Assembly: GCA_046881885.1 (NCBI GenBank)
Contig: JBKSMP010000007.1
Coordinates: 28,768-60,767, forward strand
DNA length: 32,000 nt
Direction of reading: 5' to 3'
Source: Opitutales bacterium
GTDB taxonomy: Bacteria > Verrucomicrobiota > Verrucomicrobiia > Opitutales > UBA9783
The notes beneath the pieces were generated by a model. The model was not told where the DNA came from, did no database searches, and worked only from the letters and a program-made list of their open reading frames with translations. The translations under genes were made by a program, and so were the position numbers. Shown piece by piece: positions 3,972-6,677 of the stretch (the stretch's first letter is position 1; each line of letters begins with the position of its first letter).

Positions 3972-6677
3972 ATGATTTTACAAAAACAACGCAGCTACAT
4001 AAAAAAGTTAGGATTCGTCTTAATTTTCATTGGAATTAGGGCTAATATAACCTTTGCCTATGAACTAGAAGCTCAATACGCAAGAACCAAAACCTTACTC
4101 TTAGAATTAGAAGCCCTCAACAATACAGACAATCCACGAGTCCTTGAGCAAGCAATTGAGAAAATTCAAAAAACATTAAATAAATCTATCGAAGATTTTA
4201 CACCTTCATTTTCAACATCAGGAATTTCGCCATCGAACGGAGTTCCACCACCACCTCCTCCTCCAGGAGCTTCGGGAGTTCCACCTCCTCCACCACCTCC
4301 TCCAGGAGCTTCGGGAGTTCCACCACCTCCTCCTTTTAGTAGTGTTGCACAAACAAAAACAAAAGTGAATTTCAAAAAAACAACACAACCAAAACCCAAT
4401 CTTCCAAGCAAAGGACCTTTGACCAAAACGACTTATCCAAAGTTAATTGATTTTTATTATCAAAATGTCTTTTTAGGGGCTAAAGATTATGATTTTACCT
4501 TATTAAACATTACACAAAATGGCAATCCCATAAAAAGAATAAAACTTTATACAGAAAAACAACGTAATGCTTTTCTAAAGGCCTACAAAAGCCGAGTAAG
4601 TGTTTTCGAAGCGGAAAGCAAAAAACTAAAAAACATAATAGAGTTTATTAGAGATATTGTCTTCAATTTCACCAAAACCTATTTAAAAAATCCTAGCAAA
4701 ACCGCACAAAACACCAAAGCCCCTTTCAACTATATAGATGCACAACTTCACAATTTAAACAAAAAACAAAGAAACAAGCTTCAAGTAATACTTAACTCTA
4801 TTAATCAACCCGATGGTACACATACCTTTGATGATTTAATAGAAGAAGCAATTAAAAATAAAATAGCCTTTTTAGAAACACTTCACACAAACCCTAACGG
4901 AAATTTAGCACATCCAGAGCATGCCCCATTACTAGATATTTTGTATAATTTTTTTCAACAAAATCAAGATAGTGCAAAACAACAAGCTCTAGACTACATT
5001 GCCGACCTTACTACCAACAAAAAACAAACAGCTAAAGATGCAATTGACGCAAAAAATAAGCGTATTAACGATTTAATAAACACAATAAATACGCTTGCTA
5101 CACAAATCAGACTCGATTTAATGATTGAGCACGAAATTACTTTTGCTACTGATGGATCCGTAAGGCTAAATGAAATTATTGAACAAACGAAACGAAAAGA
5201 ACTCATATTCGCAAAAAGCTTAAAAACAGCTTTAAATGAAAATTTTCCAATATCTACTAAAACTTTAGAACAAATGGGAAACGCAGACCCAAACGGATAT
5301 ACAACTTACTCAATAGCTGTTAAAAACTTAACCAAATTTCCCAAACTTCAGAATTACAGAAATCTCATTACTTCTTTAGAAAATTTAAAAAAATATACCC
5401 AGGAATCTCCAGAAAGCTCCATAGCACCAACATTAGCAAAAAGTTTAAAAACACCCTCAATAACTGTCGTTGCAAATACTAATGACATCCCACAAATTAA
5501 TAATTATTATAAGAGTATAAATCTCGATCTATTTACAGATACAATCAGCGATGAAGCCTTAGGCCAAATAGAAGAAATGATAGCACAACAAATGCAAGAA
5601 AGTACTACTGAAGATATAATTAAAATAGACTCTACTGATTTAGGAGCAATAATAGATAACGAAAATGAAGTCCAATCATTCAATACTAAAACTCCTAAAA
5701 AACCTTCCAATCTAGATAATACATTCGACCACACAAAGGAACAATCTCAAAATACAAAAACTCCACCTACTTCTAATAGTGTTCTAGATTCGAAAAACAA
5801 CTTGCCAAAAACACCTAGAACTCTAGAAAACCAGAACAAACCTAATACCGGAAAACAATCAAGATTCCCCCAAAACAATCTGAATCCAAAAGCATCCAAT
5901 GGAGACAATTCTCTACTTGTAGAGCTTTTAGAAAAACAAAAAAACAGGGCAGTTTCGCAACTAGAAGCGGCGAACGCAGTACTTCAAGAACAAAGAGAAA
6001 AAATAATCACCTTGGAAGAAGAAATTCAACAACTTCAACAGCAAAATGCGCTTTTGGCAAATAATTTAAAGCAAAAGCAATTAGCAAAATCTACCCAAAA
6101 TGATTCAGAGGCAATAATAGCAGATTTACGCAAGCAGCTCCAAGATGCATTAAACCGTCCTAGAGGTGGTGGAAGCAGCAGTTTTTCTTTTGTACATAGT
6201 CTAGAAAATAAACCTGAAACAACAACTCAAAACAATGATAATACAACCGAAGAACTAAAGAGTAAAGAAACACAAATTAAAAGCTTAGAAAATCATGTTC
6301 AACTACTAAAAGCCGAACTTAATAAGATACGAACACAAAAGGAACGCGTTCAAGCTAAAGATTCGCCAACTTCTAAAGAGCAAACAAACAAATTTTCTGA
6401 AGAGATGGAAGAAGATCTTACCTTTTTACAAAACTGGCAAGACGAGTTGGAGGAACAACAAAATCAGTTATTAGAAATGCAACACCAAATAGAACTTCGC
6501 GCTGAAGAACTCAACAAACGTGAAAAAGCTCTAAAATTAAAAGAAAAATCAAATACAACAACTGCAATTAAAAAACCTCAAAACAAAAACATACAGAAAA
6601 AAACTACTAAAAAATTAGTCAAAAAACCTGTAACAAAGGACAAGTCTTCTCAAAAAATGAATAAAGAAAAAAATTAA
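3972..6677 (+). CDS. Hypothetical secreted or membrane-anchored protein with FH1-like polyproline repeats, long coiled coil and Lys-rich C-terminal tail
   Basis: 901-aa uninterrupted ORF with an ATG start. Hydrophobic N-terminus LGFVLIFIGIRANITFA. Residues 90-121 read GVPPPPPPPGASGVPPPPPPPPGASGVPPPPP. The C-terminal ~250 aa are heptad-like and E/Q/K/L-rich, and the tail reads KKTTKKLVKKPVTKDK. A strong terminator follows. I recognise no family. Confidence 0.8.
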   Translation: MILQKQRSYIKKLGFVLIFIGIRANITFAYELEAQYARTKTLLLELEALNNTDNPRVLEQAIEKIQKTLNKSIEDFTPSFSTSGISPSNGVPPPPPPPGASGVPPPPPPPPGASGVPPPPPFSSVAQTKTKVNFKKTTQPKPNLPSKGPLTKTTYPKLIDFYYQNVFLGAKDYDFTLLNITQNGNPIKRIKLYTEKQRNAFLKAYKSRVSVFEAESKKLKNIIEFIRDIVFNFTKTYLKNPSKTAQNTKAPFNYIDAQLHNLNKKQRNKLQVILNSINQPDGTHTFDDLIEEAIKNKIAFLETLHTNPNGNLAHPEHAPLLDILYNFFQQNQDSAKQQALDYIADLTTNKKQTAKDAIDAKNKRINDLINTINTLATQIRLDLMIEHEITFATDGSVRLNEIIEQTKRKELIFAKSLKTALNENFPISTKTLEQMGNADPNGYTTYSIAVKNLTKFPKLQNYRNLITSLENLKKYTQESPESSIAPTLAKSLKTPSITVVANTNDIPQINNYYKSINLDLFTDTISDEALGQIEEMIAQQMQESTTEDIIKIDSTDLGAIIDNENEVQSFNTKTPKKPSNLDNTFDHTKEQSQNTKTPPTSNSVLDSKNNLPKTPRTLENQNKPNTGKQSRFPQNNLNPKASNGDNSLLVELLEKQKNRAVSQLEAANAVLQEQREKIITLEEEIQQLQQQNALLANNLKQKQLAKSTQNDSEAIIADLRKQLQDALNRPRGGGSSSFSFVHSLENKPETTTQNNDNTTEELKSKETQIKSLENHVQLLKAELNKIRTQKERVQAKDSPTSKEQTNKFSEEMEEDLTFLQNWQDELEEQQNQLLEMQHQIELRAEELNKREKALKLKEKSNTTTAIKKPQNKNIQKKTTKKLVKKPVTKDKSSQKMNKEKN
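4239..4334 (+). repeat. Imperfect in-frame tandem repeat (36 nt + 39 nt + 21 nt partial) encoding GVP(7-8)GAS units
   Basis: ggagttcca(cc[at])n..ccaggagcttcg repeats at 4239-4274 and 4275-4313, with a partial copy at 4314-4334. It is locally C-rich compared with the flanks. Confidence 0.9.

Follow-up and report, generated by a model that had tools for sequence, protein, structure and literature searches.

What does a protein with runs of five to eight consecutive prolines do in an uncultured gut bacterium? The question is raised by a gene, here called X (NCBI product label: MAG hypothetical protein ACLRFH_01290, Opitutales bacterium; MAG, metagenome-assembled genome), that lies in an ordinary chromosomal stretch of 32,000 nucleotides from an uncultured member of the Opitutales (Verrucomicrobiota), referred to below as the window. 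A preliminary description of this DNA had proposed that the 901-residue product is a formin FH1-like effector aimed at host actin and profilin. We tentatively favour another reading, to which we give a little less than an even chance: X is an orphan, exported, fibrous and modular protein of the contingency or variable-antigen kind, and its polyproline is a rigid spacer of variable length.

X is a real gene, since a 2.7-kb (901-codon) frame stays open in DNA of 33% GC and the ratio of nonsynonymous to synonymous divergence (omega) between its alleles is 0.28. Its start is the first ATG following a stop codon, and both the open reading frame (ORF), by ORF call and translation, and its place between tRNA-Thr and rpmG are as the preliminary description gave them (coordinates in Table 1). 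That description had also credited X with a terminator and a candidate promoter of its own. The terminator is real: the hairpin has 17-nt arms that are 94% complementary, with a core stem that reads GAGATCCACG...CGTGGATCTC on the plus strand, followed by TTTTTAT. The promoter was not recovered, as a sigma-70 scan found no site in the 139 bp of upstream region specific to X. The first ~40 bp of that region are homologous to a junction element found in conspecific strains without X at the site. In the strain with the divergent allele, L015, the 139 bp are 99.3% identical to the window apart from a 20-bp indel: the insertion ATACAAAAATCTAATTTTTA in a palindromic T6/A5 stretch that lies 40 bp before the start codon of X (window 3914-3951; L015 ~3100-3165), which could alter expression of X.

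Four alleles of X were found among conspecific strains, that of the window and those of L033, L034 and L015. The flanks of the window and L015 (ribosomal-protein genes, tuf, the tRNA block and the 139 bp upstream of X) are 99.0-99.5% identical, against 88.75% for the X coding sequence. The number of synonymous substitutions per site (dS) in X is 0.29-0.32 and that of nonsynonymous substitutions (dN) 0.08, giving the omega of 0.28; the corresponding values for rplK, tuf and nusG are 0.02-0.06 and about 0. The dS of X is close to the between-species value for flanking genes, 0.25 for tuf and nusG between the window and the sister species L002, so the alleles are about as old as the species split. 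The presence of such old alleles in nearly identical genomes implies either import by recombination or a long-maintained polymorphism. Divergence between the window and L015 begins only past about codon 30, i.e. after the signal peptide, which argues that the divergent allele is a recombination mosaic. The omega of X is 4-10 times that of its housekeeping neighbours and peaks at 0.59 in the N-terminal head. L015 also carries a 1-nt deletion in an A7 run that shifts the frame at codon ~136; this could reflect phase variation, decay or an assembly error.

The polyproline module, residues 90-121, reads GVPPPPPPPGASGVPPPPPPPPGASGVPPPPP, exactly as first described. Its tracts are encoded by a 39-bp tandem repeat present in 2.2 copies (4245-4330). 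All four alleles keep proline tracts, with lengths of P7/P8/P5 in the window, P8/P8/P5 in L033, P8/P5 in L034, where one 39-bp unit is deleted, and P8/P9/P3 in L015; their number is two or three and their length three to nine residues. Between the window and L015 the codons of the module show a dS of 0.74, a dN of 0.07 and an omega of 0.09. The tracts are thus under purifying selection: synonymous sites are saturated and the residues stay proline. Within ~200 kb of related Opitutales loci, no other ORF has a run of at least five prolines. The tracts fit the profilin-ligand pattern [G/A/L/I/S/V]P5+, and the sole Pfam match of X, to Drf_FH1, falls on them at a sub-threshold score (21.8 bits against a cutoff of 40; E 1.8e-4). 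The FH1-like architecture claimed for X holds at the level of the motif only, through the tract pattern and its retention in four alleles.

The N-terminus of X looks like a cleavable Sec signal when judged by classical rules: its n-region is basic, its hydrophobic core spans 10 residues, and the residues at -3 and -1 are small. This hydrophobic segment, already noticed in the preliminary description, reads MILQKQRSYIKKLGFVLIFIGIRANITFA, with YELE following the predicted cleavage site; the residues preceding the tyrosine are TFA in the window allele and AFA in the three others. By hydropathy it is the sole hydrophobic segment of the protein, which has no cysteine and one tryptophan. An N-terminus of this Sec-like type would suit an envelope or secreted protein more than an injected effector.

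The rest of the protein is laid out largely as that description had it. AlphaFold2 (AF2) places helices, at low confidence, at residues ~195-491 and 527-539 of a middle region without a recognised motif, and the N/T/K/P-rich low-complexity stretch was found at ~544-645. In the region read as coiled coil, AF2 predicts helices at 646-727, 752-795 and 799-860 with the best per-residue confidence (predicted local distance difference test, pLDDT) within the model. A heptad scan concurs, with scores at 658-712 and 749-863 that lie above the 99th percentile of shuffles, and the coiled coil is broken at 728-751 by RPRGGGSSSFSF... The basic tail is present and reads KKTTKKLVKKPVTKDK. X thus combines a proline-rich domain (PRD, 90-121) with a predicted coiled coil (646-860), as do BimA and Ena/VASP, and it may oligomerise. 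The AF2 runs, made from single sequences, gave a mean pLDDT of 41.7 for full-length X and 37.2 for residues 151-546. A Foldseek search of the central model against the PDB returned nothing at E<=0.001, at a model pLDDT of 37.2 that is too poor to decide, and neither a formin nor Sca2 was among the best 50 of 299 matches to this low-pLDDT model. Given models this poor (pLDDT 37-42), X may yet contain an FH2- or Sca2-like fold and be a cryptic mimic of the Sca2 kind.

X is an accessory gene. The corresponding loci of relatives, all from gut or rumen metagenomes and presumably of free-living bacteria, were retrieved via conserved neighbours (a pntA pattern scan and exact look-ups of L33, EF-Tu and PntA). 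The preliminary description had suspected an accessory insertion, and this is strongly supported: tuf-tRNA-Thr directly adjoins rpmG in every sister lineage sampled. The site is empty in L002/L016 and L029 (flanks 94% identical to the window), in L022 (~96%) and in the L018-L025 clade (PntA protein 89% identical), where the order is the rpmG terminator, a spacer of 28-60 bp, the conserved tRNA-Thr/tuf promoter block and tRNA-Thr. The X-specific block, 3833-6739, amounts to 2,907 additional bases where L002 has 28 bp, and it holds just gene X and its own hairpin. X is missing from three lineages at graded distances, which makes a gain in the lineage of the window the parsimonious account. The GC content at third codon positions (GC3) of X is 0.23, against ~0.28-0.37 (mean ~0.32) for core genes. 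No integrase, transposase or terminal (inverted) repeats flank X. The 7-bp sequence TTTTATA occurs at both edges of the block, possibly by chance and as weak evidence in AT-rich DNA, and no repeat connects the X upstream region with the distal junction near 31.1 kb.

Presence of X also varies within the species. Among conspecific strains, taken as those with a T flank at least 98% identical, X occurs in L017, L036 and L037, which represent the strain of the window itself (100% identical), as well as in L033, L034 and L015/L031. In L027, L028, L030 and L032, the gene joined to tRNA-Thr is a homologue of Y, the ORF beginning at window position 31509; in L026, a single MAG, it is the inverted hexapeptide-transferase gene.

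Several further observations concern this junction. The end of the tuf/tRNA-Thr block (window ~3840 and ~31100-31146) is a rearrangement hotspot, whose partner in close relatives is rpmG, X, Y or the hexapeptide-transferase gene in inverted orientation; this may reflect an ambiguous assembly, or a 27-kb segment that was inverted or translocated. A junction element of ~149 bp is common to L026 and L027, and the window retains its first ~40 bp only. An intergenic block, 3738-3832, is 94-99.5% conserved across all lineages, and every structural junction falls immediately upstream of it; the block, read on the minus strand as GGGTTGACTTAAGG...GCTCGACTATAGG (TTGACT...), probably represents the promoter of tRNA-Thr and tuf, including an UP-like element rich in A/T. 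Gene Y (window 31509-32000, plus strand, running off the window; L027:1-900, minus strand) encodes an exported-looking N-terminus, MNTPCKILAMAWMALRPFSTNVHA. In four conspecific contigs it stands beside tRNA-Thr at the position that X holds in the window, and its alleles are ~79-88% identical in nucleotides, against 99.5% for the flanks. The homologue in L027 has an HEFLH (HExxH) motif and no match in Pfam, PADLOC or the PDB. L033 and L034, although from different ENA assemblies, have identical ends (window 1838-5484, inside nusG and X codon 504) and differ by single-nucleotide polymorphisms and by the 39-bp repeat unit; a possible cause is that the graphs have break points in common where strains vary.

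X is an orphan in all collections searched. A full-length homologue search returned only X itself and no homologue outside the species, and a search with the N-terminal 91 residues yielded one fragment only, P0002, through which the divergent allele was located. The central region had no match in a word-index search or in an exhaustive search of 1.84 billion representatives; the query's own protein was likewise not returned by either, and these negatives are strong rather than absolute, as the library may not hold X. Neither peptide patterns nor a DNA pattern taken from a conserved flank brought up relatives in JGI metagenomes, and X had no match in IMG/VR, phage and plasmid collections, NCBIfam, PHROGs or PADLOC; a sequence search of the PDB was likewise negative. 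Pfam searches at E<=10 with three sub-regions gave noise or chance coiled-coil matches only. No widespread envelope homologues of X were found.

Searches aimed at particular domains agree with the earlier remark that X has neither WH2 nor FH2. Pfam shows no FH2 even at E<=10 and no WH2, and the expression L[KRH][KRHN][VTAIS] matches only LKNI at residue 219, which lacks the preceding WH2 helix; a motif scan also found no EVH1, SH3-class I or WW motif. A phmmer search of the PDB (E<=1) gave no match to formin, FH2, Sca2, VopL/VCD or TarP. For means of surface display, Pfam detects no Autotransporter domain, the C-terminal 250 residues being predicted helical or disordered without beta strands, and no YadA_anchor, the C-terminus lacking a terminal aromatic beta-strand. 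Neither TonB_C nor TolA is found by Pfam or NCBIfam; there is no LPXTG motif, and no anchor domain according to the same two libraries.

From these features we infer the following for X as a variable exported fibre. The protein would be exported via Sec and its signal peptide cleaved, leaving a short helical head at the mature N-terminus, and X would lie at the cell surface. Two or three GVP(n)GAS units would form a rigid polyproline-II spacer between this head and a long helical body, and repeat slippage would adjust the spacer length. The C-terminal coiled coil would oligomerise X into an elongated fibre, while the lysine-rich tail may act as an electrostatic tether to the anionic envelope (lipopolysaccharide, outer membrane, peptidoglycan) or to a target surface. 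The locus would then be a contingency or variable-antigen locus, and the presence/absence pattern, the diverged mosaic alleles, the changes in the proline repeat and the possible on/off homopolymer point to a selecting agent outside the cell, which may be phage, host immunoglobulin A (IgA) or other microbes. This scheme accounts jointly for the export signal, the lack of enzymatic domains, the patchy presence and the old mosaic alleles, and also for the omega peak in the N-terminal head, the variation in repeat length and the frameshift-prone homopolymer.

Several points weigh against it. Spacers in bacteria normally mix proline with other residues (EP/KP, PT, PAPAP), and pure runs of seven to nine prolines are unusual among them; those of X look more like eukaryotic ligand motifs, and why a spacer should be pure polyproline stays unexplained. 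No outer-membrane anchor, lipobox, autotransporter, PEP-CTERM or type IX secretion signal was recognised in X, so its retention at the surface of a diderm is unexplained too. The signal peptide is a rule-based call. Omega is below 1 everywhere in X, and positive selection is thus not demonstrated; the high dS could come from the mere import of an old allele, the divergent allele is covered over only ~270 codons, and the L015 frameshift may be an assembly error.

A broader form of the reading in the preliminary description, which we consider distinctly unlikely, runs as follows: X would be a eukaryote-directed ligand mimic, secreted or released in vesicles, whose tracts engage profilin or SH3/WW/EVH1/GYF readers in the host epithelium or gut protists, with the coiled coil clustering the tracts as in Ena/VASP or BimA and the unrecognised helical region binding actin. 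The match to the profilin-ligand pattern, the FH1-like spacing and the weak Drf_FH1 hit (the only one in Pfam) would follow naturally, as would the strong purifying selection on the prolines in every allele, and effectors typically show such an accessory, fast-evolving profile with low GC3. The order of PRD, helical region and coiled coil parallels Ena/VASP, BimA and VopL, and Sca2, a formin mimic without sequence similarity to formins and with a Sec signal, offers a precedent (PMC9569871). However, X has no WH2, GAB or FH2 signature, matches none of FH2, Sca2, VopL and TarP by sequence in the PDB (E<=1) and has no anchor for display of the autotransporter or trimeric autotransporter type; a Sec signal provides no known route into the eukaryotic cytosol; these gut and rumen Opitutales MAGs give no evidence of intracellular life; the OTU domain of one relative sits on a defence-type protein of the metallo-beta-lactamase (MBL) fold and not on an effector; and some alleles are down to two tracts or have a third tract of only three prolines. 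The proposed host actin/profilin effector thus draws support from the tracts, which in X are accompanied by a Sec-type signal and by no FH2, WH2, autotransporter or VopL-like domain; beyond the tracts it is unsupported, and it is unproven rather than refuted. The Sec signal, the lack of a display or injection device and the origin of the lineage in gut and rumen metagenomes lower its prior. We regard as very doubtful the more specific proposition that a non-pathogenic gut member of the Opitutales exports a coiled-coil-clustered FH1/Ena-VASP-like module that engages profilin or other polyproline readers in the host epithelium or in gut protists. If true, formin-like ligand mimicry would be seen for the first time outside the classical intracellular pathogens, encoded by a strain-variable contingency gene, and actin/profilin mimicry would extend to commensals.

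A bacterial use for a proline rod is offered by a periplasmic, envelope-spanning scaffold similar to TonB or TolA, in which the N-terminus would be an uncleaved inner-membrane anchor, the polyproline a strut, and the helical and coiled-coil part would contact peptidoglycan or the outer membrane via the basic tail. The order of hydrophobic N-terminus, proline-rich rod and long helical region is as expected, the Pro-rich spacer of TonB and the long helix of TolA are textbook precedents, and an outer-membrane anchor would be unnecessary. We nevertheless judge this scaffold unlikely: no TonB_C, TolA or other C-terminal domain was found, a 10-residue core followed by R-A-N and an AxA-type site is more signal peptide than transmembrane helix, X is missing from all sister species, and presence/absence within the species together with an allele dS eight times the flank value is atypical of housekeeping envelope scaffolds. 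We consider it very unlikely that a mobile or recombining hotspot carries X as cargo for interaction with phage or competitors (as a receptor mask, superinfection-exclusion factor or decoy) and not with a host. The four configurations beside tRNA-Thr among close relatives (X, Y, inverted hexapeptide-transferase, empty), a second indel within the same 32 kb that involves a defence-like MBL gene, and the resemblance of the A7 run and variable repeat to contingency loci all fit such cargo, but X matches nothing in PADLOC, PHROGs or the phage, plasmid and IMG/VR collections and is flanked by no integrase, transposase or terminal repeats, only by the 7-bp TTTTATA at both edges. Finally, its orphan status and low-complexity composition, the frameshift in one allele and its absence from many strains could mark X as a decaying or function-less lineage-specific ORF whose tracts are an expanding microsatellite-like repeat. 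This is highly improbable given a 901-codon frame kept open in 33% GC DNA, an omega of 0.28 overall and of 0.09 in the proline module despite a dS of 0.74 there, a conserved signal peptide and a dedicated terminator.

Table 1 Features of gene X and its immediate surroundings in the window.
Feature	Position	Strand	Evidence or remark
tRNA-Thr(GGT), left landmark	3662..3737	-	ARAGORN and Rfam
Upstream region specific to gene X	3833..3971	+	Three-way alignment, BLAST boundaries; missing in sister species
Gene X, 901-aa orphan exported protein (export predicted)	3972..6677	+	ORF; omega 0.28 against L015 allele
Sec signal peptide, residues 1-29 (predicted)	3972..4058	+	Hydropathy, allele alignment, classical rules
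Amphipathic helix (residues 30-75) and S/T-rich linker (76-89)	4059..4238	+	Highest omega, 0.59
Polyproline module, residues 90-121, GVP7-GAS-GVP8-GAS-GVP5	4239..4334	+	Translation, repeat search
Basic K/T/P linker (122-160), then mostly helical region to ~543	4335..5600	+	Without recognisable domain
A7 homopolymer (A6 in L015)	4374..4380	+	Nucleotide alignment, split ORFs in L015
Disordered N/T/K/P-rich low-complexity spacer, residues ~544-645	5601..5906	+	Composition, AF2
Coiled-coil region, residues 646-860 (~215 aa)	5907..6551	+	AF2 helices with pLDDT 55-75, heptad scan
Lysine-rich basic C-terminal tail	6552..6674	+	Without hydrophobic anchor, beta-barrel or sorting motif
Terminator hairpin of X block	6700..6733		Described as perfect-stem; absent where site is empty
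rpmG terminator hairpin, right edge of X-specific block	6746..6777	-	Kept in all relatives
rpmG (ribosomal protein L33), right landmark	6798..6968	-	Pfam; protein 100% identical across genus

The gene order of the window is rplA, rplK, nusG, secE, tRNA-Trp, tuf and tRNA-Thr on the minus strand, X on the plus strand, rpmG on the minus strand, then pntA, mgsA, lplA, a BspA-type leucine-rich repeat (LRR) gene, a MoxR/Bat operon, murJ, suf, a xerC-like gene, der and tRNA-Arg; an Rfam scan of the window found nothing beyond the three tRNAs. Two other genes of the window are also variable. The BspA-type LRR_5 gene (10399-11403, plus strand) has a GC3 of 0.257 and evolves fast: its protein is 75% identical to that of the sister species and 64-66% to that of the next clade, against 92-93% to the sister species for pntA, mgsA and lplA and 89% to the next clade for PntA, and its omega relative to L002 is 0.15, against 0.05-0.08 for the same three genes. 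Beside tRNA-Arg, an MBL-fold protein (27718-29322 and 29264-29788, both minus strand) matches DRT RTasMBL (E 3.6e-12), LmuA and PDC-M48B in PADLOC. This 2.4-kb stretch is absent from L026, and in L022 the place of the LRR gene is taken by a 698-aa version (L022:1809-3905) in fusion with a cysteine-protease domain of the OTU type (31.9 bits, cutoff 23.3). The MBL gene is probably a mobile defence gene. We considered the OTU domain of L022 as a sign of eukaryote-directed effectors and rejected it, as the domain's fusion partner is an MBL protein that has defence matches in PADLOC.

At present X is an interesting orphan and not a new mechanism. Gut Opitutales are, to our knowledge, uncultured and almost unstudied, and X is a clear strain-level difference among them that bears the population-genetic marks of a molecule facing the outside world. 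It is a tractable candidate for strain differences in interaction with phage, IgA or the host, and an unusually clean natural test of whether pure polyproline in a bacterium acts as a rigid spacer or as a eukaryote-type ligand.

How X relates to known systems depends on the part considered. Formin FH1 domains and Ena/VASP PRDs, like X, have several runs of 5-9 prolines, each preceded by G and an aliphatic residue and separated by G/A/S linkers of 3-5 residues. In Ena/VASP, too, the PRD is N-terminal and an oligomerising coiled coil, there a tetramerising one, is at the C-terminus, along with GAB and FAB elements (PMC9569871). In contrast to both, X lacks FH2, EVH1, GAB and FAB, has only two or three tracts and a Drf_FH1 score below threshold, and is a bacterial orphan predicted to be exported by Sec.

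The bacterial proteins Sca2 of Rickettsia, BimA of Burkholderia and VopL/VopF of Vibrio also carry proline-rich tracts beside helical or oligomerising regions, are accessory, virulence-type genes and, in the case of Sca2 and BimA, start with a Sec signal peptide (PMC9569871). In Sca2 a passenger of FH2-like fold is combined with two PRDs and, at the C-terminus, an autotransporter barrel; BimA has a trimeric autotransporter anchor and WH2 motifs, and oligomerises; and VopL/F, delivered by the type III secretion system, has three WH2 motifs and a VCD dimer (PMC9569871). The C-terminal (trimeric) autotransporter barrels that Sca2 and BimA need have no counterpart in X, where a coiled coil and a basic tail form the C-terminal end; WH2, which BimA and VopL need, is absent from X; and VopL/VopF is a type III substrate, whereas X has a Sec-like N-terminus and no VCD match. 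By sequence X resembles none of the solved domains of these proteins. The PRD and the C-terminal coiled coil are the only features that X has in common with the known mimics. With TonB and TolA, X shares an N-terminal hydrophobic segment, a rigid proline-rich rod and a long helical region, but its N-terminus looks cleavable, it has no TonB_C or TolA C-terminal domain, and it is accessory and hypervariable where TonB and TolA are core and conserved.

The M protein and PspA/PspC of Gram-positive cocci resemble X in having a conserved signal peptide and a variable mature N-terminus, a long coiled coil with a proline-rich segment, and recombination mosaic alleles with variation in repeat number and strain polymorphism. 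X differs from them in having no homology to them, a diderm verrucomicrobial host, no LPXTG or choline-binding anchor, and a pure polyproline module near the N-terminus and not a wall-spanning one at the C-terminus. In its signal peptide, coiled coil, proline-rich segment and mosaic alleles X fits the functional kind of the M protein and PspA, not by homology. Variable exported fibrous proteins with proline-rich segments are thus a known kind, of which X would be an orphan variant.

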